Below, piece by piece: positions 37,485 to 61,981 of a DNA stretch of 64,000 nucleotides. This DNA is from an uncultured Rhizobium sp. GTDB taxonomy: Bacteria > Pseudomonadota > Alphaproteobacteria > Caulobacterales > Hyphomonadaceae. The notes beneath the pieces were generated by a model. The model saw only the letters and a list, made by a program, of their open reading frames with translations, made no database searches and was not told the origin of the DNA. The stretch spans positions 24,592 to 88,591 of the forward strand of contig CAZGWV010000001.1 in assembly GCA_964529555.1 (NCBI GenBank), read 5' to 3'. How positions within the stretch are numbered: position 1 is the first letter of the stretch; each line of letters begins with the position of its first letter. Made by a program: the position numbers and the translations under genes.

Positions 37485-37794
37485 GAGTGCAATCCCCCCT
37501 AGCCAAAGCCCGCATGCGCGCGGTCGCGTAGAACCCATTCGAAGTATGCCGTGCGCCAAGCCAGATGCAAGCGTCAAGCGGCTGTGTTGGGTAATGTGAT
37601 GGCAGTGCGCCCGACGATGCATGCGGGCCCAGATAGATTGTGCGTTGCGCAAGAAAAGTTTTGCGCTTGCCCAATCGTGGCGGCGTGGTCACGCTCTGCT
37701 TCGTGGTGAGAGAGCATGTGCTCGCGGTTGGGGCATCGCTTTCGCAAAATTCTTCATGGGACTGCGCGTCGTTGGCGCGCATCGGGGGACGAAT

Positions 37795-43416: not shown

Positions 43417-43911
43417 TCAGAGCGGCGGCCCCCTCTCGCAGATCGGATTGCAGTAGACGACCTGCGCGGATATCTGCGCGCTCGATGTCGCTCCGCTGGC
43501 GTCTTTCATCGTATATGAGAAATTGTGCGTACCGAGGGGCGCCGCTGTTAGGCCAACGCCATTCGCGAGCACGCTCGCATAAACACTGCCCGTGGTCGAA
43601 ACCACCGACAACGTATCATCGGGCAGGTCGGCGTCCGTATCATTGGCAAGAACGAAAAGCGTTCCTGTCCATGTGCTTCCCGTCGTCATGAGGAAATAGG
43701 TGTCTGCCACCGCCGCCGGCGCAGCGTTGCCGCTCTTCACTTTGGTTCGGTTGTCCAGTGCGTCGTAAGTATACGTAACGACCTTGGTCGCGTCGCTCGT
43801 TTCACGAACCTGAATGACACGCCCAAGCGCGTCATATGTGTAAGTTGTCTGGGCGTTTGCCTGAGCCGCCATGACGAGCGTTGCGACGAGCAAGAGCAAC
43901 GGAAGCTTCAT
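43417..43911 (-). CDS. YD-repeat + cadherin-like protein, copy D
   Basis: 164 aa. [63 protein letters not shown]-terminal YCNPIC. Confidence 0.7.
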   Translation of the reverse strand: MKLPLLLLVATLVMAAQANAQTTYTYDALGRVIQVRETSDATKVVTYTYDALDNRTKVKSGNAAPAAVADTYFLMTTGSTWTGTLFVLANDTDADLPDDTLSVVSTTGSVYASVLANGVGLTAAPLGTHNFSYTMKDASGATSSAQISAQVVYCNPICERGPPL

Positions 43912-44201
43912 CAGTCGTCATCCCCCAATACGTGACGCGCACACGAAGCTATGCGTGAACAGGCGACAAGAGCAAGCGGGAATTCGAAAGAGTTCGGCAT
44001 CTCGTGATGCGCGATGGACTTTCGCTGGCAGGTTTTCTCGGGGCGCTAGATACCACGGAAGTTTTTTGGCTATCGGAATGCTCAGGCGTTTTTCATCGCG
44101 GATTTGTGCTTCTCGGCAAGCGCCGCCTCATTCGCCTTTTTGTTTGCCGAACGTGTCTGATGCTACTTCACTCTTCATCTGTCTACTTTGGGGGGAGACG
44201 C

Positions 44202-46720
44202 ATGCTCGAACATCTCATGTTGGCTTTGCGCACGCTGCAGGGCGTCAAGAGCGCCATTCGGCGAGGCGTGCTCGTGAGTTGTGCGCTCGCCGTCGTTGCG
44301 GCGCCGGCAGCGGCGCAAGTCCAGACTGTTGTTCCGCCGCTGTGGAGCTCGATCGATCATCTTGGTGTCGATGTAAGCACCGGAAAATACAATGCCGCTG
44401 TCACGGGAGTCGTTATTGGGCAGCCCGGCGCTGGCGGTCTTGCCCATGGGCGCGTCTGGATCGACACAGGCTGGCGCGATTCTCTCGCCGGCACGATCAA
44501 TTCCAGCGGTTCGATCTACACGGTCAGCCTGGGAGGAGCGTCTGAATCGTTCACACTCTCGAGCGGCGTCTACACGTCGAACCAGAGGATCGGTTCGACG
44601 CTGTCCTTCGCCTCAAGCAAATACACCTACACACTGGCTGAGGGTACGGTGGTCGAGTTCGATACCGCCGTGGCAAGCTGCTCGGGTGTTACCAGCTTCT
44701 GGGGATGTAATGCCGGCCTGATCACCAAGCTGACCCGACCCGATGGCGAGATCGTCACCTGGACATATTCTACCGCCAGCGTCGGCGGACAGACGGCGAT
44801 CCGTCCGCAATCTGTCTCGAACAATCTGAATTTCCACATCCACTTCACCTACGCGATCAACGGACCGAACAACGGCAGCGAAGTCGTGGGCGGCTATCTG
44901 CAACGGACCAAGGTCACTGGCATCAATCGCGCCGTCTACAATTGCACGAACGGGTCATTCACCTGTTCGGACAGCACGGGGGCGGACTGGCCCTATGTCA
45001 CGTACGGAACGGAGAGCGGAGGCTCGATCGAGACCGTGACGGATCGGCTGTCGCGGGTCATGCGCTACGTCTTTGCCAGCGGCAAAATGACAGGCATTCG
45101 GTTGCCGTCGTCATCCTCCACAAACCGAATCACGGTCACCTACGTGAGCGGCAAGGTGGCTGGTGTCACCAGCAGCATAGGAGGCAATGACGGGGCTACC
45201 TACTCGTATGTGGACAGCGGCGGAGAGCGCGTCACGACCATCGACCCAACGGTCCACGGCGGCAACAAGGTCGTCGTCACGAATCTAGCAAACGGATGGA
45301 CCACGGAATTTACGGACGGCATTCTCGGCGTGAACACGACGGTGTTGACGCGCGACGCCTACGGGCGCGTCACGCGCACAACACTGGGGCTCGGCCAGTA
45401 TGCCGACTACACATACGATGCGCGCGGGAACATCACGCAGACCATATTCACCCCCAAGACCGGCTCTGGGCTTTCGAACATCACGACATCAGCGTCGTTC
45501 CCGGCGAACTGCGCCAATCCCAAGACCTGCAACAAGCCTGAATCGACCACGGACGCGCGGGGTTACCGTACGGACTACACGTACTCATCGACCCATGGTG
45601 GGTTGCTGACTGTAACTTCGCCTGCGCCCTCGGGTTCGGCGCCGATTGGCAGCGGAACGCGACCTCAAACGCGCTTCACTTACGCTGACGCCAGCACGGG
45701 CATCTACAGGCTGAGCGGAACATCGTCGTGCGCCAGCGGGTCTTCGTGCGCCAACGCCGCGAACGAGACGGTGCAGTCGATCACCTATGACAGCCAGCGG
45801 CGCGTAGCCTCTACCACGATCAGGGCAGGCGATTCATCGATTACCGCAACCTCGTCCGTCACCTATACATCGCTGGGCGACATTGCGACGATTGACGGGC
45901 CCCTGAGCGGAACTGGCGATACGACGCGGTTCTATTATGACGGCATACGCCGGCCGCGTGCGGTGGTTGGTCCCGACCCGGATGGTGGTGGGAGTCTTCT
46001 CCATCGTGTCGCCAAATCGGACTACAATAGCGATGGCTTGATCACGGCGGCGCAGCTGGGCGCCGTGTCTTCGCCGGGAAGCTGGGCCTCGCTCACCGTG
46101 ATGCAGCAGCAGGATCTCGTCTACAACGCCGCCGGCCTCGTAGCGACGGCGAAGCTGGCTTCCCTCAGCGCCGATCCTCCACATGCGGTTGCGCAGTTCG
46201 ACTATCTGGCAGGCTCCAACGTAACCTGCTCGGCTGTACGAATGAATCCCGCGACGTTCGCCTCGCTGCCGGGGTCGGCTTGCGATGCGGCGACGGCAGG
46301 CTCGTTCGGGCCGGACAGGCGCGCACAGCCAACGCTCAATGATCTGGGCGAGCTGACGGAGATGCAAGAAGCCTATGGAACGCCGCAGCAGCGCAGCGTG
46401 GCGAAGATGGAATATCTTTCGTCCGGCGAGCTGCAGAAGATAACGGACGCGGAGGATTTCCGCACAACTTATCACTACGACGGATTCAGTCGTCTCGTGA
46501 AGACAAACTATCCGCATCCTTCGTGGGGCAACATCAGTTCCTCGACGGACTATGAAGAGCTGACCTACGATGCGTATGGCCGGCTGACGGCGCGGCGGGG
46601 CAGGGATGGGCAGAGCTTCGCCTATTCCTACGACAATCTCGGCCGGGTGACGACGGTAGATGCGCCTGGCTCGCAGCCGGATGTGAGCTACACCTACGAC
46701 AATTTCGGCCGGGTGACGCA
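44202..46720 (+). pseudogene. Rhs D, 3'-truncated (no core end, no toxin tip)
   Basis: ATG at 44202 after GGGGGGAG. Signal peptide ...ALAVVAAPAAA/QVQ. Closely parallels Rhs C up to ...DAPGSQPDVSYTYDNFGRV (about 46715). Thereafter the open frame is merely the antisense of imuB. Confidence 0.8.
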
Positions 46721-47108
46721 GGTCATCCAGCATTGCCGCTTCGCCGCCGAACAGGTGCGCGACGCCACTCCCGTCAAACACCAGTCCGTCGGGAAGATCG
46801 ACCGCGACATGCGGGGAATAGCGCCGGATGATCCACAATCCGAGGCGTTCCAGGGCAGCCACATCCTCTTGGGGATCGGCGAGTTTTGTTTCGAGGCCCG
46901 GAATCAGGGACTGTGCCTGGGTGGCTGGCATACCGGTGCGGATTCCGGCCTTGCGGGCAGCGCCGTTGGCGGCATGGATGATCTTGGAGCGGCCATCGGA
47001 GCCGACCAGAACGAGCGGGCGCTCACGAGGCGGCGCGGTATCGGGATGCGTCCTGTAATAGCGATCCGTTGGCCAGGTCGGCAGGAAGAGCGAGACGACC
47101 TTTTTCAT
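46715..47108 (-). pseudogene. imuB: imuB (Y-family polymerase-like mutagenesis protein), only the N-terminal ~130 codons remain
   Basis: MKKVVSLFLPTWPTDRYYR...RPLVLVGSDGRSKIIHAANGAARKAGIRTGMPATQAQSLIPGL...LFGGEAAMLDDL is an ImuB-type N-terminus. Downstream of ~46715 the frame becomes the antisense of Rhs D YD repeats. Confidence 0.75.
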
Positions 47109-47775
47109 CACACGCCTCCACGATGAAGTCTGCACATTGTCCGGCCTGGCTCCTGATAAGCTCGACGAGCCAGCGTGGCCGGCCGACGCCAGGAACAGGG
47201 AGCGGTGAAGAGGGAAGGGCGGTGACGCGCCAGCGCGTCGTCGTTGCAGTCGGCTGCCCGAAATCGAATGTGTCGCGATCGCGCTTCCAGCGGCGGATTG
47301 CGAGCGCCAGCGTGCCGGACGTCTCGGCGGCGAGCTTGAGACGGCGCGATGCGGTCATCGAAAGCTTGGCGATCTCTCCCACGACGGCGCCCAAGCCGTC
47401 GTGACGAAGACCTTCCTCGCAGCAGGCAAGCGGCGAGGCTTCATCGCCAGCCTCGACGATGATGATGCGATCAGGGTCGAGACCAGCCTGCGAGAGTGCG
47501 GGGGCAAACAGATCCGGGCGGGTGATGCACCACAGGATCTGTCCCCGGGTGCGGGCGGCTATGCCTGCAGCGAAGAGGATGGTGGCCGCGCCGTGGATTG
47601 CGCCGGACGCGCCGCCGGCTATCTCGTGCAAGCTGTCCAGCGCCAAGCCGCCGCCCGGAAGAATTCTATCAATTGAATCAATACCGAAGGCGAGCGCATG
47701 CGTCTGCGCCCGGCTGCTCAACCCGAGCCGTTCGATATCCTTTCTGAGGCGCTGAAGAAGCGCTTGATCCTGCAC
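47023..47775 (-). CDS. imuA: ImuA (RecA/SulA-like SOS mutagenesis protein)
   Basis: 250 aa. ...IDRILPGGGLALDSLHEI...GAATILFAAGIAAR...ILWC...DLFAPAL...GLDPDRIIIVEA... pattern typical of ImuA. Sits directly upstream of imuB and overlaps it. Confidence 0.8.
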   Translation of the reverse strand: MQDQALLQRLRKDIERLGLSSRAQTHALAFGIDSIDRILPGGGLALDSLHEIAGGASGAIHGAATILFAAGIAARTRGQILWCITRPDLFAPALSQAGLDPDRIIIVEAGDEASPLACCEEGLRHDGLGAVVGEIAKLSMTASRRLKLAAETSGTLALAIRRWKRDRDTFDFGQPTATTTRWRVTALPSSPLPVPGVGRPRWLVELIRSQAGQCADFIVEACDEKGRLALPADLANGSLLQDASRYRAAS

Positions 47776-47804: not shown

Positions 47805-47963
47805 CAAACGGGCGGTAGAGTCAAATCGGGGCGTTTGCGTCTACGTTTTGTGCGGATCTGAACGCTGCCTGTCAGCACTGCAGCGTGCGGTTTGCGCTGA
47901 ACATCTGGCATCGGGTAACTTGGGCTATTCGCATCGGCATTGATTCAATGGAGACCTCTTTAA

Positions 47964-50900
47964 GTGTCTGAGGAGCCTGCACCGGACACAAGTCCGCGGG
48001 CGTCCGGGCCTGCCGGGCCACAATTCGAGGTCAAGGTCGCGACGCACTATGCCTTGGCGCTCCTTGCGGAGTCGGAGGCGTTCGGTCTGCCAGGAGCGGT
48101 GGTCGAAGCGCTGGAGTTCCAGCGCGCCGGCCAAGGCCATCCCCTGGACGACATCATCGTCAAAGGAAAGAGAACCGACGGGTCGGAGCGTTGCCTCGAG
48201 GTCCAGACAAAGCGCTCGATGTCGTTTACCGAGGCCGACACTGATTTCGCGGCTGTCGCAGCTGGAATTGCCAAAGGGCGCCGGATTGACCCCGAACGGC
48301 GGTTTGCCGTCGCTATCGAACGAACGACGGGCGCGATCGAAACCGGCGTGCAGGAGGCGCTCGAACTCGCCCGGAATACGGTGGATGCATCGGAGTACTT
48401 CAAGCTTCTCAATACCAAAGGACGCAGCAACGACGCGATGCGGCGGTTTGTGTCCGCGTTCAGGAAGCACTTGGATGCAAATGGTGTTGTCGGCGACGAC
48501 GCCTTGTTCGACATCCTGAATCGCTTCGTGGTTCTGGTCTTCGACTACGCGCGTCCTGCGTCGATTGCGGATCATCATGATCGTGCCAGGGCAAAAAGTG
48601 TCCTTGGCTCTCCCGACGCAACACATCCATACGACACGTTGCTCGGCCTCATCTTCAGATCCGATGCGATTGGCGGACAAACCAATCGTGCGCACCTCGT
48701 CGCCCAGCTGAATGAATTGGGACTGCAGACCAAGCAAAGGCCCAGCCTCGTAAAAGCGCGGAGCCGCATCGAAGAGATGAGCCGGTTTGCGCTTGCCGAA
48801 ATCTCGACGGATGTCGCTGGCCATCAGATACTCAGGGGAAAGCGCCGCGAAGCGCTCGCCGATGGGATCGCTGAAGCACGATCCGGCCACCGCATCGTCG
48901 AAATCACGGGACCCGGCGGCGCGGGCAAATCGGCCTTGCTCCGCTGGGCAGCCGACGCGTGGGGCGCATCGTGCCGCGTTATGGTATTTTCGCCGTCCCG
49001 AGTCCCACAAGGTGGTTGGCCTGCGTTACGCAGCGCATTTGACATCGACGCGACCGCCGAAGTCTTCCTCGCCGATCTCGTTTGCGATGGAGGTGGTCTC
49101 GTCTGCATTGATGGACTCGACCGTTTCAGGAGTGAGGGCGAGCAGAAGACAGTGTCGGACATTCTGCGTTCGGCGCTTGCGACCCAAGGTGCGTGCATCC
49201 TTTTTACCGCTCGCGACGGTTGGGAAGAGGAGGCTACCTGGCTCCCGTCCGACATTCTCGAGGCGCTGAAGCCTCGCAAGACTCTGAGGGTCGAAGGCCT
49301 CAATGATGAGGAAGCGAGCGATTTGGCAGGCCTGGCGCCGAACCTGGCTCGATTACTGGCCCCAGATCATCCCGCCCGGTCGCTCACGCGCAATCCGTTC
49401 ATTCTAAAGCGCCTGATCCGAAGCCGGCTCGATGCAAGCAAGCCAATCAGCGAGGCGGCGCTGGTCAAGGACTGGTGGACGTCAGGCGGTCATGGCCTGA
49501 CGCATGCCATCGGCGTGCAACACGCTCGGAGGCGGGTGTTGCTCGCCGTTGCCAAGTCGATCCTCGCGGGCGAGAGCCTCGCTGATGTCAGCGGCGAGGA
49601 TTCTGAAGCAGTTGCAACACTCTTGAGCGATGGGGTCATCGTCGAAGCCAATGCAACAGATCGAGTGAAATTCAAGCATGATCTCTTCGCCGATTGGGCG
49701 CTTGGATGTGCACTCGCCGAAGACATGGGTTCTTTGGGTCTTGATGCGCCGCCTCCGTTCTGGTTGAGCCGCGGCTTCGAACTGTCATCTTCCCTGCTAG
49801 CAGAGAAGGATGATCCAGCAGAATGGGCCAACCGCGTTCGCACGCTCATGCAGGAAGGCGTGCAGAGCGGATGGGCAGGCTTGGCTGTTCTGGCGCTTGT
49901 GCGCTCGGAAAACGCCGCAGAGCTGCTCAATCGGCACAGCGCCGCATTGCTTGAGGAAAAGGATGCCATTGCCGCAGTGCTGATCCGGCGGACGATCGCA
50001 TCGCACGGAACACCTCTTGACCAGGTGCTGGGCGGTGTTCTTCCCCCGGGCACGCAGATTCCGCAGGGACTGATTGTACCCGATGTACGCCGGTGCATGC
50101 CATTGGTGGCTTGGTGTGCCGCGCGCTTTGACACGCTGCCATCTCTGGCTCTGGCGGCCGCGGTCGATATCTTCGAAGCGTGGCTGATGCTGATGACCTT
50201 CGGAGAACGAGCAATCTCTTCGATCCTGCTCGATCGGTTCGCCGACCTCCTGGTTGCTCATCTGGAAGATCGCGAACTTCGCACCAGCTATCGTCCGGGA
50301 GAGAAGCTTCCAGTCATCCGATACCCACTCGGCAGTGATGGCGTTGAGGCGGCCCGGCTTCAACTCTCATTGCACGCCACACACGTGCCTGACGCAGCCG
50401 CGCGCTACCTTGACGCCATTGCCAAGTCGCCGCGTGCAGAAGACGAATTGACCCGCGTCCTGGAGTTTCCGGGCTCACTGGCTTCCGCTGCGCCTCAATC
50501 GTTCGCACTCGCCTTGCGGCGAGCGGTCCAGATCGAGCGGGACTACGCCAAGAAACACGCCCGCCGGGGCCACATCGAGCCGCGCTTTGGCCGGCTGGAA
50601 CACCCATTTGTGCTTGGCAAAGCAGGATCAGGCATTTTCGCAGATCTGCTGGAGAAAGACTGCGATGTAGGCGTTGCACTGATCCGTGACCTGGTCGCCC
50701 ACATTGAGGATGGTCACACAGACGAACACGCCTTCGATCTTGTGTTAAGCGGCGACAAGAAGCGTGTGACGTCGCCGTTCAGTTATGGTTGGTCGCGCGG
50801 CCAGAGCCCTTCAACGATCCTCGCAAAAGCTCTTTCGGCGCTGGAGCATTGGGCGCATGCCCAGGTAGAGAGCGGGCGTCCCATTGGTGAAATCGTCGGC

Positions 50901-52070
50901 AAGCTCGCGAGCGGAGACTCGATCAGCGGCGCGTTCCTAATGATCATCGTTGATGTGGTTCTGAGCCACTCAAATCTGGACGGACCCGAACTCATCGATC
51001 TGGCGTCATCGCCCGAGACACTGGCGTTGGACGCGCACCGGGCTCAGCTGGACTATGTGGAGCGGGCAACAGGTCGATCGCTTTCGATTGGTCTTGGGGA
51101 AAGCCGCCTTCAGAAAGATCGTGAGATTGAGGCTTCGCTGTCGCAACGCACGTCGCGGACGGTGCCGCTTCACAGCGCGCTGTCGCAAATGACCATGTGT
51201 CAGAACGATGAGGCGATCGCTGAGGTGCAAACGCGGCTACGACGTGAAATAGACCGGCTCGGCGCGTGGGCGGACGAAGTCGTGAACTTGACGTCACGCC
51301 AGTTCATGGCGTCGCACGCGCTGCTTCTTTCCGACAAGAACAACTACACCCCCGTGTCGGAAACAGGGGCTGACGGCATCACGAGGTCTGGCTGGCAGTT
51401 CAAGATGCCGGAAAATCAGAATCGCTGGCTCGAATCGCAATCCGCCCAGACGACAGCTGAGACGATGTCGTTCAATCGTGCGCTTGCGACGCGGTTGTCC
51501 ATGAACAGCGGCAAAGGAGCAGCGAGAGCCAGCGTTGAGGATGCACTTGCGGTCCTCGCGGAAACCGCAGGCGCCAGTCCCGGCGAGTCCAAGGAGCTGC
51601 ACGATCCAACGGATCCTTGGGTGGCTCGGGTCGGCGCCGCAGCCTACATCGCACGCTTTGGCGACGCGGCCGCTTTGAAAGCGCATCGCGTGGAGATTGA
51701 AGCCTGTTTTGACACCGCGCTCGGTCCTGAGATCAAGGCCAGACAGAACTATCGATACGACGTCATGTATGATCCCGTGGCGCTCGCGATCACCGGACGT
51801 CTCTATCTCGCGACACGCGGCAACGATCCACAGATCGACACGCTATTCGACGCCATACGGAGATTCCCCCAGAGCGCCGCTGCGGCTTTCACCTGCCATG
51901 CGAACGCGGCGGCCACCCTTGGCGAAGCGATGCTCGCTGCGTGCATTAGAGTGGGTCTGCAGTCCTGCATTTTCCGAGGCGCAAGGACTATGACGAGTCC
52001 GATGAAGTGTTCGAGCAGCGGCGGACGAACTCGGATGAGCAACGCGCAAAACGGGTTGCATCGGAGCTAG
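47964..52070 (+). CDS. Giant STAND/NACHT-like NTPase with N-terminal Cap4(DUF4297)-like PD-(D/E)xK domain; candidate defence protein
   Basis: 1368 aa, GTG start after GGAGA. aa ~18-84 GPQFEVKVATHYALALL...LDDIIVKG...CLEVQTKRS (nuclease-like D...QxK pattern). Walker A ITGPGGAGKSALL (nt ~48906), NACHT-style Walker B LVCIDGLDRF. ~950-aa helical C-terminal region. Confidence 0.7.
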   Translation: MSEEPAPDTSPRASGPAGPQFEVKVATHYALALLAESEAFGLPGAVVEALEFQRAGQGHPLDDIIVKGKRTDGSERCLEVQTKRSMSFTEADTDFAAVAAGIAKGRRIDPERRFAVAIERTTGAIETGVQEALELARNTVDASEYFKLLNTKGRSNDAMRRFVSAFRKHLDANGVVGDDALFDILNRFVVLVFDYARPASIADHHDRARAKSVLGSPDATHPYDTLLGLIFRSDAIGGQTNRAHLVAQLNELGLQTKQRPSLVKARSRIEEMSRFALAEISTDVAGHQILRGKRREALADGIAEARSGHRIVEITGPGGAGKSALLRWAADAWGASCRVMVFSPSRVPQGGWPALRSAFDIDATAEVFLADLVCDGGGLVCIDGLDRFRSEGEQKTVSDILRSALATQGACILFTARDGWEEEATWLPSDILEALKPRKTLRVEGLNDEEASDLAGLAPNLARLLAPDHPARSLTRNPFILKRLIRSRLDASKPISEAALVKDWWTSGGHGLTHAIGVQHARRRVLLAVAKSILAGESLADVSGEDSEAVATLLSDGVIVEANATDRVKFKHDLFADWALGCALAEDMGSLGLDAPPPFWLSRGFELSSSLLAEKDDPAEWANRVRTLMQEGVQSGWAGLAVLALVRSENAAELLNRHSAALLEEKDAIAAVLIRRTIASHGTPLDQVLGGVLPPGTQIPQGLIVPDVRRCMPLVAWCAARFDTLPSLALAAAVDIFEAWLMLMTFGERAISSILLDRFADLLVAHLEDRELRTSYRPGEKLPVIRYPLGSDGVEAARLQLSLHATHVPDAAARYLDAIAKSPRAEDELTRVLEFPGSLASAAPQSFALALRRAVQIERDYAKKHARRGHIEPRFGRLEHPFVLGKAGSGIFADLLEKDCDVGVALIRDLVAHIEDGHTDEHAFDLVLSGDKKRVTSPFSYGWSRGQSPSTILAKALSALEHWAHAQVESGRPIGEIVGKLASGDSISGAFLMIIVDVVLSHSNLDGPELIDLASSPETLALDAHRAQLDYVERATGRSLSIGLGESRLQKDREIEASLSQRTSRTVPLHSALSQMTMCQNDEAIAEVQTRLRREIDRLGAWADEVVNLTSRQFMASHALLLSDKNNYTPVSETGADGITRSGWQFKMPENQNRWLESQSAQTTAETMSFNRALATRLSMNSGKGAARASVEDALAVLAETAGASPGESKELHDPTDPWVARVGAAAYIARFGDAAALKAHRVEIEACFDTALGPEIKARQNYRYDVMYDPVALAITGRLYLATRGNDPQIDTLFDAIRRFPQSAAAAFTCHANAAATLGEAMLAACIRVGLQSCIFRGARTMTSPMKCSSSGGRTRMSNAQNGLHRS

Positions 52071-53086
52071 ACTGGTTGGCTAGCAAGCAGACTGAGCTGG
52101 GCTGGCCGACTCCTCCGCCACGTCGCCAGCGCAAACAACCGGATGAAGCTCTGGTCCCGCTTGAGCCCGGGAAACCGCGGCGGAGGAGAGCGGCGCCAGA
52201 CATGCCGGACTTCTACTTCGATGATCACACCGCCGCGGTCTGGCTCAGACTGGTGTCGAGAACGACGACCCTCGCACCGAGCAAGGTTGCTGACCTCGTC
52301 CGCGCGAACCAGGAATGGCTGCTCGATGTCAACGGTCCGCCTGCGAGCGATGAAGACGACCGGGATTTTGAGAAGTCCTGGACGCGCGGGATCCTAGAGT
52401 GCGCGGCCAGATGCGCGAAAGCCTGGACTGCCAGCGAGCGCGACCATCTGATCTTCGACATGCTCGCGCGGTTTTCGGATCAGGCATTCATCAGCGCAGC
52501 GGCCGCCTTCCTCGTCCAGGCCGACCTTCATCACATTGAGGGAACGGCCGATGACACCGCGTATCTCGTTGAAATTCGAGAGCGTCTATGGCCTCGGCTC
52601 AAGGAAACGCTCCGATGGAAACAGCACCTGTGGTCGTCGTCGAAGACGGGGATGGAGTACAACCTCAAGGAGATCGTTGCCGGCTTCTTCCTTAAACGAA
52701 GTCGCGGGTTCGAGGGCGCGACCAGCTATACCAAGGGGCTGAGCGAGGAGCAGCTCACGCCATTCCTTCCACTGATGACGGAAATTTCCGTTGCCGCGGG
52801 TGCTTGCTCGACGATCACGCTGTTCTTTCTCGACATCCTGGAGATCGTCTCGCCTTCGGCGGCCGCTGGACCACTTCTTGCGGCTGCTACAGCCTGGGAA
52901 AGGGATGCCGAGGGCAGCTTCTGGTCGTCGTTCAGCATTGGCGCTCGCGTTGGCCGGCTGGCGAGTCAGTTCGCAATCGAACCTCAAGACATCGGGTCAT
53001 GGATTCGGATTGCAGACGCTATCGCGTCCGCTGGTGTCGTTGAGGGTGAGCAACTGAAACGAAAGCTTCAACAAGCTGACCGTTGA
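52007..53086 (+). CDS. Partner ORF of the NACHT-like protein (or its frameshifted C-terminal extension); helical, no recognised domain
   Basis: 359 aa, GTG start. It overlaps the upstream stop by 64 nt, and its frame is open from 51950. The composition looks coding (Trp/Leu/Glu-rich helices). Confidence 0.5.
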   Translation: MFEQRRTNSDEQRAKRVASELDWLASKQTELGWPTPPPRRQRKQPDEALVPLEPGKPRRRRAAPDMPDFYFDDHTAAVWLRLVSRTTTLAPSKVADLVRANQEWLLDVNGPPASDEDDRDFEKSWTRGILECAARCAKAWTASERDHLIFDMLARFSDQAFISAAAAFLVQADLHHIEGTADDTAYLVEIRERLWPRLKETLRWKQHLWSSSKTGMEYNLKEIVAGFFLKRSRGFEGATSYTKGLSEEQLTPFLPLMTEISVAAGACSTITLFFLDILEIVSPSAAAGPLLAAATAWERDAEGSFWSSFSIGARVGRLASQFAIEPQDIGSWIRIADAIASAGVVEGEQLKRKLQQADR

Positions 53087-53478: not shown

Positions 53479-55407
53479 ATGTCCGTTCAACAACAAACGA
53501 TCCTGTTCATTCCGCTCAACAAGCTTGGCGTTTCCACTCGGAACGTCCGGCGCAAGGATCGCAAGGCCGACATCGAAGCGCTCGCCGCGTCGATTGCATC
53601 ACGCGGTCTGCTGCAGAATCTCTGTGTCGTGCCCGGCGAGAGCGACCGCTACGAGGTCGATGCTGGCGGCCGGCGTCATGCCGCGCTGAAACTGCTCGCT
53701 AAAGCGGGCGTGATCGAAAAGGACTGGCCGGTCCCCTGCAATGTCGTCGCCCGTGAGGACGGCGTCGAAGTGTCTCTCACCGAGAATGTGCATCGCATCG
53801 CGATGGACGCGATGGACGAGGTCGATGCCTATGCGACTCTCATCGCTGAAGGAAAGACCTCGGACGAAGTGGCGCGGCGCTTCGGCGTTGAGCGCCGGCA
53901 TGTCGATCAGCGTCTCGCGCTGGCTGGATTGTCGCCGAAGATCAAGTCCGCTTGGAAGCGGGGCGACGTCAGTCTTGATGCCGCCAAGGCATTCTGTCTG
54001 GTGGAAGATCATGCACAACAGGATGCTGTCTATCGCAGTCTCGGCAAGCCGGTGACGTCGGCGTCGTCGGTCCGAGCGCGGCTGATGGATGGGCGCATGC
54101 GTGTGACTGACCGCGTGGCGCTGTTTGTTGGCGTCGAGACGTATGAGGCGGCTGGCGGAAAGGTGTTGCGCGGCCTGTTCGATACCGATGCCGTTTTCAT
54201 TGAAACGCCCGCGTTGCTGATGAAGCTTGCGGAGGACAAGCTTGGCGCATCGCGGGACGAATTGTTGGCGAAGGGGTGGAGCTGGGTCGACCTCAATCTG
54301 GGAACCGGCCGGATCGAAGGTCTGTCGCCTACGCGGCTGCAGCCGGAATGGCGTGATCCGACAACCGAGGAACAGGCCGAGCTCGATCGCATCTCGGGAG
54401 AGATCGAGGCGCTCGATGCGGCTCTTGAATCCGACAGCGTGGAGGACGATCTCCGCTGGACGCAGCGCGATAGTCTTGAGGCCGCTTATGAGACCATTCG
54501 ACAGAACGGGCGGCACTGGACCGGGGAAGTTACGGCGCTCTCCGGCGCTGTGCTGTCGATCAGTCATAACGGCGAAGTCAGCGTGACGGAAGGGTGCGTG
54601 CGAACGGAAGACCAGAAGCGCGTCGATGCTTACCTCAAGCTGAAGCGGGCAGGGAAGAACAGCGAGGTCGACGAGGGCGCAGATCGTCCTCCAGCGCGTG
54701 TCAGCGCATTGCCCAAGGCAGTCAATCGCGATCTGACGCTTGCGCGTACGCGCGCGATCCGTCTTGCGCTCTCGGGCGATCCGGATGTCGCTCTGGCATT
54801 GTGCGTCGCGGCGATGGTCGCGAGGAGTGTGCACCGGATCGAGATCACTGGCGTTGCGATTTCGGCGCAGGTGCGCCCGGTGGACGATCTTCCCGCCCTT
54901 GATGAAGCGCGCGCTGAGCTTGAGGGCAGATTGCCGTCCGACGAGTCCGCGCTTCTCGAATGGGCGCTCGACCTCTCGCGCGAACGACTGCTTGCAGTCC
55001 TCGCTGTTCTAGTTGCAGGGAGTATCGACCTTGTGCATGACGACACGACGCCCAATGACCTTTGCAAGCAAGCGCTTGCAGATCGGCTGGCGCATCAGCT
55101 CGATATCGACATGACGAAGTTCTGGCAGCCTGACCTCGACTACTGGATCCGGTTGCCGAAATCGGCGCTCATGGCGGCGATCGCCGAATCGCCAGGCATG
55201 GTCGAGCGAGGAGAGCGTACGCGGGCTGACCTCCTGAAAGCACACTCGAAACTTCGGAAAGACGACCTCGCTGCGAAGGTTACGGCTGCGTTCGATGGCG
55301 CGGGCTATTTGCCAGAGATACTGGCAACACCCGTTGTTGCGGGCGATCTCGTTATCACGCCTGAGGGCGTCGCCGCAATTTCAGTTCCAACAATGGCGGC
55401 GGAGTAG
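53479..55407 (+). CDS. ParB-like N-terminal domain protein of conjugative elements
   Basis: 642 aa. ParB/Srx N-domain: IPLNKLGVSTRNVRR...LAASIASRGLLQNLCVV...YEVDAGGRRHAAL (GxRR arginine patch), followed by an HTH-like region (SDEVARRFGVERRHVDQRLAL) and a long helical tail. Confidence 0.85.
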   Translation: MSVQQQTILFIPLNKLGVSTRNVRRKDRKADIEALAASIASRGLLQNLCVVPGESDRYEVDAGGRRHAALKLLAKAGVIEKDWPVPCNVVAREDGVEVSLTENVHRIAMDAMDEVDAYATLIAEGKTSDEVARRFGVERRHVDQRLALAGLSPKIKSAWKRGDVSLDAAKAFCLVEDHAQQDAVYRSLGKPVTSASSVRARLMDGRMRVTDRVALFVGVETYEAAGGKVLRGLFDTDAVFIETPALLMKLAEDKLGASRDELLAKGWSWVDLNLGTGRIEGLSPTRLQPEWRDPTTEEQAELDRISGEIEALDAALESDSVEDDLRWTQRDSLEAAYETIRQNGRHWTGEVTALSGAVLSISHNGEVSVTEGCVRTEDQKRVDAYLKLKRAGKNSEVDEGADRPPARVSALPKAVNRDLTLARTRAIRLALSGDPDVALALCVAAMVARSVHRIEITGVAISAQVRPVDDLPALDEARAELEGRLPSDESALLEWALDLSRERLLAVLAVLVAGSIDLVHDDTTPNDLCKQALADRLAHQLDIDMTKFWQPDLDYWIRLPKSALMAAIAESPGMVERGERTRADLLKAHSKLRKDDLAAKVTAAFDGAGYLPEILATPVVAGDLVITPEGVAAISVPTMAAE

Positions 55408-55473: not shown

Positions 55474-58400
55474 TCATTCGTCCAGGATTTCACCTTCGCG
55501 TACGGACTTTTCGATCTCTTGCTCCGCCGACCGGTGAAGTTTGGCGTACAGCGCATGCGCCGGCGACGTTTTGGGTACCGTGACCAGCGCCTCACCGGAT
55601 TTGTCGCGTTGCTGGACGTCCTCTGTCATCGGCTGACCGACGGTTCCGCTCCGCATACCTGAGACAGCCGACGCATAGAGATCGGAAATCATGTCGCTGG
55701 TCGTCAGTACCCCGATAATAGCGCAACGCTCGAGCAGCTGCTCCACGAAAGCCTTCTCGTCGTAGACAAACGTGCGCGGCGCCTCACGCAAAAGCAGGCC
55801 TATCAGCTGCAGGTCATCTGAACTTGCCGTAGGAATCTTAGTCTTGAAGAAGGCGGCCGCGCGCCCAAATGCACCCCTAGCAAGGCCCTCGAATACGCTG
55901 CCGACATGGTTGGTGAAATAGAAGTCGTTGCGCTTCGGATGCGCTCGCATCCACTGCCAGGTCCGTTCGAGAAGCTCTGTCGATCTTGACGTTTCGAATA
56001 CTTGGACATTGGCGTGCGTCCAGGGCCCGTAGTTGATCGGCCGGTGGTCGAAGGACTGCAGTTCAATGGCGTCATCGAGACGTGTCAGGACGAAATCCAG
56101 AAACTGGTCGGAAAACGCGGTCGACACATAGGTGAGGAACCCCTCCAACCATGCGCCGTCGAGTGTGGGCAGCGGTCGGAGTATGGCGAGAAATCTGACT
56201 ATATCGTCAGATGTCAGGAGCTCGCGCTTGCCGCTCTTCTGATCGGCAAAGAACAGGAAGAGATCGTCAGCCAGTCTGGGGGAGGCATGTATTTCCGCTG
56301 ACGACAAGAGGTCTATCGCCTGTCGAGGCGTCAGGCCCTTCCACTGCCAGATCGTTCGAATTGCGCCTACCACCGCCGAAGGATTTGCAGATGCGATCGC
56401 CGCCTGAAGGAGGGCGATGTCTTCACGATCTGCCTGCCGTCCGGTCCATCCGAGCGCGCTGGCGGCTGCCTGCGCCAACACGTGTTCCGGGCGCTGCAGG
56501 AATCGCAATGCGAACGCTCGGCCTTCCGCCGGGTCGGCAGCCATGATCTTGCCGAGCGCCGTGGCGGCGAACTGGCTGGTGATGGAGGCGGGACCTGCTT
56601 CGGCGTCTGTCACGATCGCACGTGCGAGATCGATGTCGGTGTCGAGAAGCGGGAAGACGATTCCTCCGCCGTTCGAGATGTTATCGCCGGCGGTAGCGAG
56701 TTGGCTCAGCGACTCGTCTAGCACATCGCGCAACGCGGCGCCGGAAAACTGGGCTCGGAGGTCGGTTGTCAAACTACGAAGCCATTCTTCCTGGCGCTCG
56801 AACCACCCATCGGCAAATGGACGACCGGTGAGCAATGCTTCGCCGCCGCCACTGAGCGCGGTTAACAGGCGAAACTCCATGGACTTTGGCGTTGCTCCAA
56901 GGACCTTGATGGCCGCCAACTTCAGAGCGCCGGCGCCATACTGCGCGTGCCACAGCACCGACCTTGAGATTCCTAGCGCCGCAATATCCGTTACGGCCCC
57001 GGACTCAAGAAGAGCTTTGAGCGATTCCATCGTGCCTTGAAATTCACGCCGGTACTTGGCCAAGAGCGTGCGGCTGGTGGCATTGTGAGGCCGTCTCAGC
57101 GCCGATTGCATCGTCGTGGCTGCCCGAGAGACCGCTTTCGGCGAGGGACTGACGAGCAGTTGAAGCAGTTTCTCGATCAGACGCCGTCTTAGCGGCGCCA
57201 CGACATCGTAGTTCACGAGAAACTGGGTGATCGAGAACTTCCGGCCGTGATCGCGGGTCGTTGACCCTTCGCCGCTCAGAACAGGTCGCACAATATCGAG
57301 GGGAGAGTAGTGGTGGTCCCACGCGCCGGGTCGATCCATAAGCGACAAGCCGAACTCAAACACACGTTCGCTGAAGACGAGCGGCTTGCGCTCCTCGAAA
57401 CCGCAAAGCTCACTGAGGACTCTTATCGCGTGTCCCGGGTTCGGACCCGTTTCGCGCTTGTCGTCTCGGCCCAGGCTCCACAGCAGCTCGCAAACTTCGT
57501 CGACGAACTGGAAATTGTAGCTGACATAGCGAAGTGTCGTGCTCAGACGGTCAAATGTTTTGCCCTCGCGGATTCGCGCCGAGACGAAATCGAGCGCTTG
57601 TCGCGGTTGATAGACGGCGACCGCCTCGATTGCTTCCAGGCGGGGGTCATACGGGTTCTCGATATCCGACAGTCCGTCCCAGACCTCCTGCAGCAGCGTG
57701 CTGTCAGATGGGTTTCCGCTTCTGAGGCGCCAGTCCATGCGGCAGAGATTGATGAGCAAGTTCCGCAGGTACCCTGTCTTCACCTGCGAGAAGGCTTTCA
57801 GAGCGAACGGCGCCAACCTGCCGGTCGCGGTGAGGCAGCTCTGTTCGATAAGATAGTCGCCCAGCAGGTCCGGCATCAGTCGATACTGGTTGCGCCTTCC
57901 GTAGATGACCCCGCCTTCCGCCAGAAGCTTCAGCAGGCGTGGCGCGTCAACGGGATCGACACCGGTCAAGACATGAAGGAGTTCATGAAGTCCGGGATCC
58001 TCGATGTGGAATGGCTGCACGAGAGCAAGGACATACAGGACTTTCCTCATTGGGCCGTGGTCTTCCTGACCACCGAGGTGCTCGACGCTGGAAGTTGCAA
58101 ACTTCGCGAGAATCATGCCGCGAAGCTCGTCGCTGTTCTTGGCTCGCTCGAATGGCCACTTTTCTTGCGCGACGATCTTCCCCGCCATGACCGTCACCAA
58201 CGGACAATCCAGCGTCGCTCCAACGATGCTGTCGCTGAGCGCGGCCGGAGCGCCGAAGTGCGTTAGAGCTTGGATGGCAAGATTTTGCACAGCCTCCGGC
58301 GCCAGGCTCTCCAGTTTCAGCACCACAGGATCGAGTACGGAAAGCTGCGCAGCTTCCCGACGAATGCGGGCGAGCGCGTAGGGGCGCGTCGCCAGGACGA

Positions 58401-59502
58401 GCGTCGCGTTGTTTGCAGCTGTACAGGCAAGCTGGATGAGATCCGCCAGTCGCTCGCGGTTGTGGGCATCATCCACAACGAGGATCTTCTTGCCCTTCCC
58501 GAGGGCTTCGAGACTCTTGGGTACTGGATCGCCATTGGGAGACAGGAATCGGGTCAGGGTCTTCCCGTCGCTGGGAGCAACCTGGCCAGTCGCTTCCTTC
58601 AAGAGCCTGGATTTGCCGGCGCCGCCAGGCGCCACGAGGATGATTATCTTCTTTTTGTCGTCCGCAATTGCCTGGCCGAACGCCGCAAGCTCTGCATCTC
58701 GTCCCGTCAGTAGCCATGAATGGCTCAGAGCGACGTCCTTACCTTCAAAGGGTGCGAAAAACTCCGCGCTCGTCATCCAGGGACTGGCCTCCGTGCGGCC
58801 GAGCAGGGCGAGGCGCTGTCCGGCGAAGAAGATGTCGACCAGACGATCCTGCTGATCCTCGGTCAAATCCATGCGCACGATGCGGGAGAGGTCGTTCCTG
58901 TCGAGGATATTCCACCCCGGTGTCGATCGTATCAGGTTCGCGGTTTGCGGACTCGCGACGCGGCTGAGGACAATGTGCTTGCGATCCGCGAGCGCGATAT
59001 GAGCCTCGATCGCGTCGCGAGCGTCTCCGGGCCCAAACTGCTTCACGCGTTTGCACTGGAAGCTGAGCACTTGTCCGTCGGCGGTGTCGACGCGGATGTC
59101 GAGGCCATCCTGCGTGTGACCAGACGTTCCCGCACGCCTGACGGCCTGGTCGCCAAACTTCGCATGCAGAACGTATTCAATGAAGCTTTCAAATGTGTCG
59201 GGATCGAGCTGGTCGACCGGGAACGGCTTTGCGAAACTCAAAGTCGCTGGAGAAGAGGTGCTGTGGCCGAGCGCGGCCGACAGATCCTGGGGGGCGATAT
59301 CGAGAAGTCGCGCCAGTTTCGGGAGTTGCGCAGGCCGGGGCTTGGTCGCTCCAGACTCCCACCGCCGCACGGAATCTGCGGAGCAGCCCATAGCCTTGGC
59401 GAAAGCTTCTTCAGTCTGAAACCCCGCTGCCCGTCTCGCCGTTGCGAGATAGGTCGCGGGGTCGAATTGGTCTTGGTCCTGATTCACGGTCGTCCTGTGC
59501 AC
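55474..59502 (-). CDS. Giant HTH(XRE) + Mrr-like restriction-endonuclease-fold + P-loop NTPase + helical-repeat protein; candidate defence protein
   Basis: 1342 aa. aa ~25-75 EEAFAKAMGCSADSVRRWESGATKPRPAQLPKLARLLDI (XRE HTH). aa ~100-160 FESFIEYVLHAKFGDQAVRRAGTSGHTQDGLDIRVD...LSFQCKR (Mrr_cat-like D...QxK). Walker A IILVAPGGAGKSRLL, Walker B KILVVDDAHN. ~900-aa HEAT/ARM-like tail. Confidence 0.7.
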   Translation of the reverse strand: MHRTTVNQDQDQFDPATYLATARRAAGFQTEEAFAKAMGCSADSVRRWESGATKPRPAQLPKLARLLDIAPQDLSAALGHSTSSPATLSFAKPFPVDQLDPDTFESFIEYVLHAKFGDQAVRRAGTSGHTQDGLDIRVDTADGQVLSFQCKRVKQFGPGDARDAIEAHIALADRKHIVLSRVASPQTANLIRSTPGWNILDRNDLSRIVRMDLTEDQQDRLVDIFFAGQRLALLGRTEASPWMTSAEFFAPFEGKDVALSHSWLLTGRDAELAAFGQAIADDKKKIIILVAPGGAGKSRLLKEATGQVAPSDGKTLTRFLSPNGDPVPKSLEALGKGKKILVVDDAHNRERLADLIQLACTAANNATLVLATRPYALARIRREAAQLSVLDPVVLKLESLAPEAVQNLAIQALTHFGAPAALSDSIVGATLDCPLVTVMAGKIVAQEKWPFERAKNSDELRGMILAKFATSSVEHLGGQEDHGPMRKVLYVLALVQPFHIEDPGLHELLHVLTGVDPVDAPRLLKLLAEGGVIYGRRNQYRLMPDLLGDYLIEQSCLTATGRLAPFALKAFSQVKTGYLRNLLINLCRMDWRLRSGNPSDSTLLQEVWDGLSDIENPYDPRLEAIEAVAVYQPRQALDFVSARIREGKTFDRLSTTLRYVSYNFQFVDEVCELLWSLGRDDKRETGPNPGHAIRVLSELCGFEERKPLVFSERVFEFGLSLMDRPGAWDHHYSPLDIVRPVLSGEGSTTRDHGRKFSITQFLVNYDVVAPLRRRLIEKLLQLLVSPSPKAVSRAATTMQSALRRPHNATSRTLLAKYRREFQGTMESLKALLESGAVTDIAALGISRSVLWHAQYGAGALKLAAIKVLGATPKSMEFRLLTALSGGGEALLTGRPFADGWFERQEEWLRSLTTDLRAQFSGAALRDVLDESLSQLATAGDNISNGGGIVFPLLDTDIDLARAIVTDAEAGPASITSQFAATALGKIMAADPAEGRAFALRFLQRPEHVLAQAAASALGWTGRQADREDIALLQAAIASANPSAVVGAIRTIWQWKGLTPRQAIDLLSSAEIHASPRLADDLFLFFADQKSGKRELLTSDDIVRFLAILRPLPTLDGAWLEGFLTYVSTAFSDQFLDFVLTRLDDAIELQSFDHRPINYGPWTHANVQVFETSRSTELLERTWQWMRAHPKRNDFYFTNHVGSVFEGLARGAFGRAAAFFKTKIPTASSDDLQLIGLLLREAPRTFVYDEKAFVEQLLERCAIIGVLTTSDMISDLYASAVSGMRSGTVGQPMTEDVQQRDKSGEALVTVPKTSPAHALYAKLHRSAEQEIEKSVREGEILDE

Positions 59503-61072: not shown

Positions 61073-61981
61073 ATGACCGCCAACGCCAACCTGCAATCTC
61101 TTCACGACACCGTCACCGCCCGCATCATCGCAGAACTCGAGCAGGGCCGCTTCCCCTGGGTCCAGCCCTGGACGTCGTTCGGAACGACGCCACTGGGATT
61201 GCCGGAGAATGCGTCAACCGGCCGGTCCTATTCCGGGATCAACATCCTGCTGCTCTGGTCTGCAGCCATTGAACAGGGAAGGCCGTCCCAGCGCTGGTTG
61301 ACCTTCAAGCAGGCGCTCGCCATGGGCGGGGCGGTGCGCAAGGGCGAGAAGGGGACGATGGTCGTTTATGCCGATACCTTTGTTCCGAAGGCCGAAGCGG
61401 AGAAGGCGGCTTCGTCAGGGGAGGAGGCGCGGCGCGTCGGCTTCCTGAAGCGGGTCGCGGTCTTCCATGTCGATCAATGCGACGGCCTTCCCGTCGGTCC
61501 CGATCCTGTGCCGCTCCCTGGCCGGACCGAGGTCCTGCCGCATGTTGAGGCCGTCATCGCGGCCACGAAGGCCGACTTCAGGATCGGCGGGGATATGGCG
61601 TTCTATTCGCCATCTCACGACTTCATCCAGGTCCCGCCGCAGGAGGCCTACTTCGAGCCGATCAACTGGTACCGGACCAAGCTTCATGAGCTGGGTCACT
61701 GGACCGGTCACGTCTCTCGCCTCGACCGGAATTTTACGGGCCGGTTCGGTAAGGAAGCCTACGCACGTGAGGAGCTCGTCGCTGAACTCTGCTCGGCATT
61801 TCTGTGCGCCGAGTTGGGCATTGCTCCGACCGTCCGTCATGCGGACTATCTCGGCGCATGGCGGGACGTCCTGAAGGGCGACAACCGGGCAATCTTTCAG
61901 GCTGCGTCACTTGCCTCGAAGGCGGCCGATTTCATTTCCGGTCGGCAGGCGAGCGAGGGAAGGGCGGGGGGCGCCTCCTAA
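61073..61981 (+). CDS. ardC: ArdC-like antirestriction protein (ssDNA-binding N-domain + zincin metalloprotease)
   Basis: 302 aa. N-terminal ...GRFPWVQPW...YSGINILLLW (ArdC_N/DUF1738-type) and a C-terminal HELGHWTGH zinc motif. Typical neighbour of ssb/parB in ICE leading regions. Confidence 0.85.
   Translation: MTANANLQSLHDTVTARIIAELEQGRFPWVQPWTSFGTTPLGLPENASTGRSYSGINILLLWSAAIEQGRPSQRWLTFKQALAMGGAVRKGEKGTMVVYADTFVPKAEAEKAASSGEEARRVGFLKRVAVFHVDQCDGLPVGPDPVPLPGRTEVLPHVEAVIAATKADFRIGGDMAFYSPSHDFIQVPPQEAYFEPINWYRTKLHELGHWTGHVSRLDRNFTGRFGKEAYAREELVAELCSAFLCAELGIAPTVRHADYLGAWRDVLKGDNRAIFQAASLASKAADFISGRQASEGRAGGAS

Follow-up and report, generated by a model that had tools for sequence, protein, structure and literature searches.

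The stretch of DNA analysed here (the window; 64,000 nt) carries two overlapping ORFs that a first-pass annotation had read as a giant nuclease-STAND protein followed by a separate helical partner, together forming a candidate antiviral module. The question raised by this locus is whether it represents a two-gene defence system or a single gene. Both ORFs, and the motifs quoted for them, are real: ORF1 (47964 to 52070; GTG start preceded by a GGAG Shine-Dalgarno sequence at 47950-47953) encodes 1368 aa, and ORF2 (52007 to 53086; GTG start) encodes 359 aa and overlaps ORF1 by 64 nt. (All features of the gene lie on the + strand.) We consider it probable, at roughly 0.78, that positions 47964 to 53086 make up one Avs-type gene of ~1,707 aa, related to Avs4 and equipped with a Cap4-type nuclease, that lost its function recently through a 1-nt deletion.

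A reading frame split by a 1-nt deletion

The homologues of this locus encode what ORF1 and ORF2 encode together. In particular, ~120 homologues of 1695-1745 aa are each a single protein and cover 95-100% of the conceptual fusion, and in an exhaustive search of 1.84 billion representatives, ORF2-like sequence formed the C-terminus of all full-length matches (~residues 1340-1710). The closest intact gene, in a locus that we refer to as L001, is 89% identical to the window at the nucleotide level over 5.1 kb. Over that distance the sole uncompensated indel in the coding frame is found at 51970 to 51973, where the junction alignment places a run of four Ts in the window against five in the intact homologue. 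With the frame restored, alignment to L001 and to the other homologues delimits a disrupted gene of ~1,707 codons (47964 to 53086). Three-frame translation against the homologues identified positions 51975 to 52070 as out-of-frame read-through, comprising 31 aberrant codons and the TAG that ends ORF1; the C-terminal 31 residues of ORF1 (RGARTMTSPMKCSSSGGRTRMSNAQNGLHRS) are the product of this read-through. Intact homologues read '...LQSCIFPRRKDYDESDEVFEQRR...' uninterrupted across the junction, which is in frame and read continuously in P0001, P0002, P0003, and P0012. Note that the ORF2 frame is open already from 51950, before the GTG at 52007, and that the 370 codons of the distal sensor tail (51974 to 53086), which contain ORF2 from this internal GTG, are collinear with aa 1338-1705 of the same four homologues. 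Loss of a single nucleotide has severed the C-terminal 370 residues from the rest of the protein, and these are what had been taken for a partner ORF.

We regard it as very improbable that the locus is instead a two-gene system in which the 1,368-aa STAND protein works with a separate 359-aa helical partner. The possession by each ORF of its own GTG start, the 64-nt overlap, and the existence in metagenomes of a few proteins of 320-400 aa that begin near the start of ORF2 would fit such an arrangement, but homologues, close and distant alike, are fused, the split amounts to one nucleotide relative to an 89%-identical gene, ORF1 ends in out-of-frame residues, and neighbour clustering across 28 loci revealed no conserved partner gene. 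Moreover, some of the short proteins that were checked had scrambled C-termini, and of the two candidate stand-alone ORF2-like genes that were checked, one was a fragment at a contig edge and the other a remnant of decay. The fused homologues and the 1-nt deletion essentially refute a module of STAND protein plus partner. Slightly less probable still is programmed -1 ribosomal frameshifting, or another form of recoding, at TGC-ATT-TTC-C that would provide a regulated low level of the full-length protein. If the ribosome slipped by -1 once past the TTC codon, the ancestral ...CIFPRRK... would be restored exactly; however, the site lacks a canonical X_XXY_YYZ slippery heptamer, a run of four Ts is too short for transcriptional slippage, and every homologue encodes the junction in frame, with none frameshifting here. 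The sequence of the site led us to reject this explanation.

It is also unlikely, if less so, that the organism carries an intact gene, the frameshift being a homopolymer error of sequencing or assembly. A single-base change in the length of a T-run is a classic error of this type, the tail is free of decay, and the MAGs that supply several of the frameshifted homologues may be long-read assemblies. Against this, the T-run is only 4-5 nucleotides long, and the same sequence was assembled independently: Logan contigs of SRR16798011 and SRR16797981 encode the identical 1,368-aa product in DNA that matches the window at 100%, and the frameshifted sequence is also that of an NCBI contig. The two runs probably sample the same population and are thus not fully independent. 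The dN/dS ratio is 0.175 in the tail vs 0.125 in the body, and the tail contains no extra stops. Because the tail is undecayed, the window copy looks like a recent and genuine pseudogene. Its product, truncated by 370 residues at the distal end of the sensor, is most likely non-functional. Given this frameshift, protection of the host by the window copy, as proposed earlier, is doubtful. (Decay is frequent in the family: of ~33 loci that could be assessed, at least 8 show it.)

Domain organization of the intact protein

The family is mostly marine and alphaproteobacterial and comprises a few hundred sequence clusters. Conservation figures given here come from an alignment of 44 sequences, whereas the search for related loci was built on 17 closer sequences.

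The effector domain (aa 1-275; 47964 to 48788) was delimited with AF2 and Foldseek. In the AF2 model (pLDDT 86.6) its core is arranged as alpha(19-35)-beta(42-51)-beta(64-69)-beta(75-83)-alpha(93-108)-beta(113-118) and is followed by a helical sub-domain. The best 17 matches to this model in a Foldseek search of the PDB were all Cap4-type (LmuA 9hr5, SeAvs3 8dgc, and Cap4 6wan/7yib/6vm6/6vm5), with a probability of 1.00 and moderate TMq values (0.41-0.52), and scores dropped sharply after them. These findings support a Cap4-type PD-(D/E)xK nuclease fold for the modelled domain. Eight N-terminal domains matched no Pfam family, not even DUF4297 (PF14130), at E values up to 10, and comparison of the N-domain sequence profile with PDB sequences retrieved no nuclease, the one match being a spurious hit to the designed helical protein 6egc (E 0.0098). 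Because DUF4297 went undetected, the assignment holds at the fold level only; of the Cap4/DUF4297-like nuclease proposed earlier, the fold was recovered and the Pfam family was not.

Conservation, together with strand positions in the model, outlines a putative catalytic motif (48147 to 48212) consisting of D62-D63 (48147-48152), which precede beta2, and E79-V-Q81-T-K83 (48198-48212), at the end of beta3. D62, D63, Q81, and K83 are invariant, E79 is at least 90% conserved, and so is the nearly invariant E22 (48027-48029) of helix 1. The N-terminal motifs quoted in the first pass, G18-P-Q-F-E22, Y29ALALL34, L61DDIIV66, and L78EVQTK83, are all present. The PD-(D/E)xK topology suggests that D62/D63/E79/Q81/K83 may be catalytic. 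Of note, the ExK position is occupied in all members by Q81 rather than by D or E, such that the motif reads Q81-x-K83 with E79 two residues upstream. Since glutamine holds this third catalytic position throughout, nuclease activity is assumed only, and we refer to the N-domain as a putative DNase.

The central part (aa ~276-640; 48789 to 49883) had been proposed to be a STAND NTPase, and AF2 modelling, Foldseek, and profile comparison support this assignment, resolving NBD, helical, and winged-helix sub-domains. When a model of aa 1-640 (pLDDT 90) was searched with Foldseek, Avs4 (8dgf) was the first match (4e-12), followed by NLRP9, NLRP1, CED-4, and NLRC4, and the family profile matched the 8dgf sequence with an E value of 2.7e-14. 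The Walker A motif or P-loop, G316-P-G-G-A-G-K322-S323 (48909 to 48932), aligns to GEGGVGKT of Avs4, and its residues G316, G321, K322, and S323 are invariant. Walker B, L379-V-C-I-D383-G-L-D386 (49098 to 49121), aligns to VIVVDSAE of Avs4; D383 is invariant, D386 is at least 90% conserved, and I382DGLDRF388, as quoted earlier, is present. In the winged-helix sub-domain, conservation and the Avs4 alignment identify H572-D573 (49677 to 49682) as an 'HD' counterpart of the STAND/NB-ARC MHD histidine. H572 is invariant and D573 at least 90% conserved, and the pair aligns to T-H469-D470 of Avs4, itself invariant in an Avs4 alignment. The invariance of the quoted nuclease and NTPase motif residues is far more than expected by chance. 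Pfam NACHT (PF05729) scored below its gathering threshold (23.2 vs 26.7 bits) and matched the P-loop only (aa 311-337).

The proposed Avs-type layout of effector, STAND NTPase, and sensor was borne out, and direct homology to Avs4 extends well into the C-terminal part. Using full-length Avs4 sequences taken from plasmid records, hhalign aligned the family to Avs4 with a probability of 99.8% (E 8.4e-28) over 1051 columns at ~14% identity; the alignment spans family residues 166-1313 and Avs4 residues 71-1202 of 1571, and thus the NTPase and ~700 aa of sensor. Matching stretches in hmmsearch were 276-769 and 869-1052. The proximal C-terminal sensor (aa 641-1337; 49884 to 51974) is collinear with the Avs4 sensor to ~aa 1313. 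For the final ~390 aa, ORF2 included, hhalign gave no Avs4 counterpart, and the trigger of Avs4 is therefore not transferable to the family. To this extent the earlier remark that the tail is without a counterpart in Avs proteins stands, but Avs4 has an unaligned C-terminal remainder of its own that is of similar length. The NCBIfam equivalog for Avs4, NF041815, reached 36.2 bits against a cutoff of 1500 (E 1e-9) over aa 259-581 only. On these comparisons the intact protein is a distant, uncharacterised relative of Avs4.

Related systems and genomic context

The family shares with Avs4 (EcAvs4, 8dgf) a nuclease of the PD-(D/E)xK superfamily, a STAND NTPase with Walker A, Walker B, and winged-helix HD motifs, and a large helical sensor, and its length (~1,707 aa) is close to that of Avs4 (1,587 aa). 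Avs4 is its best PDB match by sequence and by structure, and members of both are single genes on conjugative elements adjoining integrases. They differ in nuclease, which is Mrr-type in EcAvs4 and Cap4-type in the family; with the N-domain alone as the query, 8dgf fell outside the top 50 Foldseek matches. In its effector the family is closer to SeAvs3 and SeAvs7, in which a Cap4-type nuclease likewise stands at the N-terminus, ahead of the STAND NTPase and a TPR-like sensor; the N-domain of SeAvs3 (8dgc) was the third-best structural match, with the joint-highest TMq (0.52). The NTPase and sensor of the family are akin to those of Avs4, however, and not to those of Avs3 or Avs7, to which NCBIfam and PDB-sequence profile comparisons gave no match at the sequence level. 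Cap4 of CBASS and LmuA of Lamassu have effector domains with the fold of the family N-domain, in which acidic and lysine residues are conserved at the putative PD-(D/E)xK positions; comparison at the Pfam or profile level revealed no similarity. Regulation sets the three apart: the family has a fused STAND sensor, Cap4 a SAVED domain, and LmuA the SMC-like LmuB/C complex.

Among defence-database profiles, the nearest is PDC-M54A of PADLOC, whose length (1,621-1,657) is similar to that of the family. Its matches (15-71 bits) span the N-terminal domain and the NTPase (~aa 18-620), and these low scores argue that the two are sister families and not one. PADLOC's Avs4 model did not match the window protein and gave 16-29 bits for distant family members. 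The 'M' in PDC-M54 is presumably PADLOC's label for multi-gene systems. None of the neighbours tested matched the PDC-M54 partner profiles, nor did the upstream gene of a Paracidovorax homologue or the adjacent giant genes. A literature search found no publication mentioning PDC-M54 by name, and in the accessible portion of the supplements to a 2026 STAND survey (~90 clusters), six homologue accessions and their host genera did not appear.

The first-pass annotation had also placed the locus in the cargo of an ICE, which agrees with the conjugation and maintenance genes in the window (VirB4/TrbE, TrbB, and TraG of a T4SS, ParB, and ArdC). Element boundaries and an integrase were not located within its 64,000 nt, and megablast of the region against plasmids returned only a 480-bp, 74% match over an imuA-like gene. 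Neighbours in other loci include an integrase, BrxR, a helicase, DUF4357, and ARPP-1/VWA/PP2C (L001); ResIII and SNIPE/T5orf172 (L002); ParB-RadC-ArdC, AbiE, AAA_21, and an integrase (L003); and a relaxase and TraG (L010). Mobile-element markers lie within 10 kb in at least 14 of ~27 loci. Homologues reside in defence islands, mostly on ICEs or beside integrases. A second, unrelated giant STAND-type gene accompanies the family member in ~12 of 28 loci, in three lineages only 12-21 nt downstream and on the same strand; in the window, a gene of this kind (HTH-Mrr-nSTAND5-HEAT) occupies 55474 to 59502. By analogy with paired plant NLRs, the recurrent pairing might constitute an ICE-spread sensor/helper module, an idea to which we give little credence. 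Of more modest reach is the alternative in which the ~390-aa tail, peculiar to the family, would confer a trigger specificity other than the portal sensing of Avs4.

We think it similarly improbable that the intact family serves the mobile element, for instance by detecting the entry of plasmids or of rival ICEs, or through addiction or exclusion, rather than acting against phages. Such a role would be in keeping with the strong association of the family with ICE backbones, where members lie between ParB/ArdC and an integrase or between a relaxase and TraG, and with a C-terminal ~390 aa unrelated to the Avs4 sensor. Yet EcAvs4, whose anti-phage activity is proven, is also found on conjugative plasmids adjoining an integrase, classic anti-phage neighbours such as AbiE and BrxR occur in several loci, and the sensor is homologous over ~700 aa to that of Avs4, which senses the portal.

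Proposed mechanism and implications

The mechanism and the exchangeable effectors of Avs3, Avs4, and Avs7 have been described (10.64898/2026.01.04.697583, PMC11897194, 10.1101/2025.11.14.688446), and in SeAvs3 and SeAvs7 the active Cap4 nuclease forms when the trigger induces tetramerisation (10.64898/2026.01.04.697583). By analogy, the family is likely to employ the same mechanism. Reasoning from SeAvs3, EcAvs4, and SeAvs7, we propose that the ~1,070-aa helical C-terminal sensor of an intact member would bind a conserved phage protein, upon which the STAND NTPase (K322, D383/D386, H572) would drive ATP-dependent oligomerisation. This would bring the N-terminal Cap4-type nuclease domains (D62/D63, E79, Q81, K83) together, and the assembled nucleases may then cleave DNA indiscriminately, aborting the infection. 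The whole would constitute a single-gene system that moves as cargo of ICEs and integrative islands.

In this respect the intact protein would be an ordinary representative of an already described class of bacterial immune proteins, and it raises no new mechanistic question. What appeared to be a new module of STAND protein and partner is corrected to a single frameshifted gene, another instance of ICE-borne defence cargo and of how often such genes decay. The analysis also defines a sister family of Avs4, as yet uncharacterised, in which an Avs4-like NTPase and proximal sensor occur together with a nuclease of Cap4 type and a distal sensor of the family's own. With no significant Pfam match, a score below the NCBIfam cutoff for Avs4, and weak matches to PDC-M54A, this family is a candidate for addition to the profiles of defence-finding tools.

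A single gene interrupted by a frameshift

The first-pass annotation assigned window positions 47964 to 53086 to a giant Cap4-like nuclease/NACHT-like NTPase protein followed by an overlapping partner. Both reading frames are present, ORF1 (47964-52070, +; 1368 aa) and ORF2 (52007-53086, +; 359 aa), with a 64-nt overlap, and the quoted motifs are found in ORF1, their key residues being invariant in an alignment of 44 homologous sequences. This observation is confirmed in part only: the two-ORF structure is an artefact of a frameshift in one gene, and the homologues are single proteins. In particular, the ORF2 frame is open already from 51950, ahead of the ORF2 start, and the 31 residues at the end of ORF1 resemble out-of-frame read-through. 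When ORF1 aa 1-1337 are joined conceptually to the second frame, the fused sequence retrieves ~120 proteins of 1695-1745 aa, with 95-100% of its length covered; the best match, P0001 (90% identity), and three further homologues (P0002, P0003 and P0012) are continuous across the junction ('...LQSCIFPRRKDYDESDEVFEQRR...'). Moreover, comparison of the window with L001, the locus encoding P0001 (89% DNA identity over 5.1 kb), reveals a single uncompensated indel within the coding frame, one T being missing (TTTT at 51970-51973 versus TTTTT in L001).

An exhaustive phmmer search of 1.84 billion representative proteins with ORF2 returned 179 matches. In all of the full-length ones (~1,660-1,760 aa) the aligned part lies at approximately residues 1340-1710; the shorter ones reach the C-terminus of the protein, as contig-edge fragments would, and include some with scrambled C-termini and one internal-deletion chimera. 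The two cleanest candidates for a stand-alone ORF2 gene were rejected, one being open to the contig edge and the other a 3' remnant that has stops upstream and retains residual homology. Clustering of all flanking ORFs at 28 loci revealed no conserved neighbour gene.

A protein identical to the truncated 1,368-aa product is found in the public protein collection (NCBI and Logan), from three contigs. Two Logan contigs (SRR16798011 and SRR16797981; separate assemblies) share 6.8 and 5.7 kb with the window at 100% identity, and both contain the T4 junction. This identity between assemblies of two runs argues against the idea that the frameshift arose in sequencing or assembly, and a systematic error is less likely in a run as short as T4/T5; we thus consider such an artefact improbable and a genuine mutation more likely. 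Relative to L001, dN/dS is 0.125 in the body of the gene (before the frameshift) and 0.175 in the tail (after it), and the tail is without any further stop in 368 codons. Judged by these dN/dS values and the lack of added stops, the mutation is recent. The window copy, without the distal sensor residues, is probably inactive.

Decay is frequent in this family, with frameshifted, internally deleted or remnant copies at no fewer than 8 of ~33 assessable loci. Decayed copies in reference genomes are those at L020, L023, L025, L039, L040-L042 and L044. The L020 frameshift (~aa 1305-1313) lies near that of the window; others fall at ~aa 150 (L023) and ~aa 700 (L025), an internal deletion in L039 joins aa 1-66 to 1421-1708, and N-terminal remnants of 30-105 aa also occur. 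(Note that some decayed copies may be long-read errors.)

Domain architecture and relationship to Avs4

The N-terminal domain (aa 1-275) has no Pfam match. Its AF2 model (pLDDT 86.6) has the alpha-beta-beta-beta-alpha-beta core of PD-(D/E)xK nucleases, with D62/D63 preceding beta2 and E79-x-Q81-x-K83 on beta3; D62, D63, Q81 and K83 are invariant in the 44-sequence alignment. In keeping with the proposed Cap4-like nuclease, the 17 best PDB matches of the model are all Cap4-type (probability 1.00, TMq 0.41-0.52), namely Lamassu LmuA (9hr5), the SeAvs3 N-domain (8dgc) and CBASS Cap4 (6wan, 7yib, 6vm6 and 6vm5), after which scores collapse.

The central region is, by its predicted structure, a STAND NTPase, as had been proposed: the model of aa 1-640 (pLDDT 90) best matches the antiviral STAND protein Avs4 (8dgf, 4e-12), followed by NLRP9, NLRP1, CED-4 and NLRC4. 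Walker A residues G316, G321, K322 and S323 and Walker B D383 are invariant in the same alignment, and both motifs, together with an invariant winged-helix H572-D573, align with the corresponding Avs4 residues. Against PDB sequences, Avs4 was the sole match of the family profile (E 2.7e-14), extending well beyond the NTPase. Profile-profile comparison with four full-length Avs4-type proteins taken from plasmid records aligned family positions 166-1313 with Avs4 71-1202 of 1571 (probability 99.8%, E 8.4e-28, 1,051 columns). Thus, at the level of sequence profiles, homology to Avs4 spans the linker, the NTPase and ~700 aa of sensor sequence, which bears out the suggested defence layout of nuclease, STAND ATPase and sensor. 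Neither the nuclease core nor the C-terminal ~390 aa, within which ORF2 lies, could be aligned to Avs4 in this comparison.

Genomic setting and neighbouring genes

The window carries VirB4/TrbE, TrbB and a TraG coupling protein (561-7231), a ParB-family gene (53479-55407) and ArdC (61073-61981), and a conjugative-element setting, suggested earlier as ICE cargo, is therefore supported. The family occurs chiefly in marine Alphaproteobacteria, and some members come from Desulfobacterales, Gamma- and Betaproteobacteria and Myxococcota. Intact homologues occupy defence islands and mobile elements, and mobile-element markers are present within 10 kb at 14 or more of ~27 loci. Neighbours include an integrase, BrxR, DUF4357, a 1,699-aa helicase and ARPP-1/VWA/PP2C (L001); a ResIII helicase and SNIPE/T5orf172 (L002, Phyllobacterium); and ParB-RadC-ArdC, AbiEi/AbiEii, two AAA_21 genes and an integrase (L003, Breoghania). 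The homologue at L010 lies between relaxase and TraG, as, by BLAST markers, do those at L018 and L027.

Separated from the target gene by 2.4 kb and only the ParB gene lies another candidate defence gene of the STAND type (55474-59502, -), whose intact 1,342-aa product has HTH_31, a weak Mrr_cat restriction-endonuclease match, nSTAND_NTPase5 and HEAT repeats. A further giant gene, P-loop or STAND-like and encoding 1,060-1,530 aa, adjoins the homologue at ~12 of the 28 loci (for example, L009:15109-18846, L012:15109-18852 and L025:15108-18851; L007:15184-19062 and L014:15195-19052; L010:15244-19662, L018:15295-19662 and L006:16076-20623). In one lineage it follows the homologue in the same orientation after just 12-21 nt. 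These genes form three or four families between which BLAST shows no relationship, one with an LmuA-like N-terminus and nSTAND5 and another with nSTAND3 and HEAT. That this recurrent adjacency to an unrelated giant STAND-type gene, represented in the window by the one at 55474-59502, reflects a paired function seems to us very unlikely.

Elsewhere in the window, a type II secretion cluster (secretin, GspE, GspF and GspM-like; 18.9-27.3 kb) is surrounded by at least seven RHS/YD-repeat ORFs (9814-17765, 28446-35010, 37621-42084 and 43417-47126), one of which has DUF6973 at its C-terminal end. ORFs 17154-17765 and 12477-17081 (-) share a frame with a stop between them, which suggests a nonsense-split RHS gene. 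At positions 45834-47775 (-), an imuA-imuB cassette appears to have been cut short by the RHS region: downstream of an ImuA-like gene (47023-47775; NCBIfam ImuA 62 bits, below the 150 cutoff) comes an ImuB/Y-family polymerase ORF in which only the N-terminal ~140 residues of the IMS domain are kept and which is overlapped on the opposite strand by RHS ORF 44004-47126.

Placement among known systems and proposed mechanism

The target protein misses the NCBIfam Avs4 equivalog cutoff widely (36 versus 1500 bits). PADLOC candidate PDC-M54A is a distant relative of it (15-71 bits), and the PADLOC Avs4 model is a distant relative of the family (16-29 bits in distant members). We place the protein in a sister family of Avs4 that bears a Cap4-type effector. 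This combination is unsurprising, because SeAvs3 and SeAvs7 are established carriers of Cap4 effectors (10.64898/2026.01.04.697583) and Avs4 homologues have exchangeable effectors, either a PD-DExK nuclease or a trypsin-like protease with Pepco or MBL (10.1101/2025.11.14.688446). The first-pass interpretation is thus partly supported: nuclease, STAND NTPase, defence layout and ICE cargo hold, but the partner ORF does not.

Conjugative plasmids are the usual carriers of EcAvs4 itself (26 of the 38 matching records; IncI and IncHI in the two that were examined). Its position in E. coli pA117-CTX-M-8 (L049, 3431-8194), two genes downstream of a site-specific integrase and immediately before AbiGi, gives it a mobile-element setting that parallels that of the target family. 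A Hymenobacter aerilatus plasmid (L052, 3095-8134) encodes a 1,679-aa hypothetical protein, close in length to the target family, that shares 28% identity with the NTPase region of EcAvs4 and may be an intermediate between Avs4 and the target family.

A model for the mechanism can be drawn from Avs3, Avs4 and Avs7 (PMC11897194; 10.64898/2026.01.04.697583). By analogy, the sensor would bind a conserved phage protein. The portal protein is a possible trigger, since the proximal sensor is Avs4-like; the distal ~390 aa are unrelated to Avs4, so this assignment is uncertain. The NTPase would then swap ADP for ATP and oligomerise, and the Cap4-type domains would assemble as an active dsDNA nuclease, leading to abortive infection.
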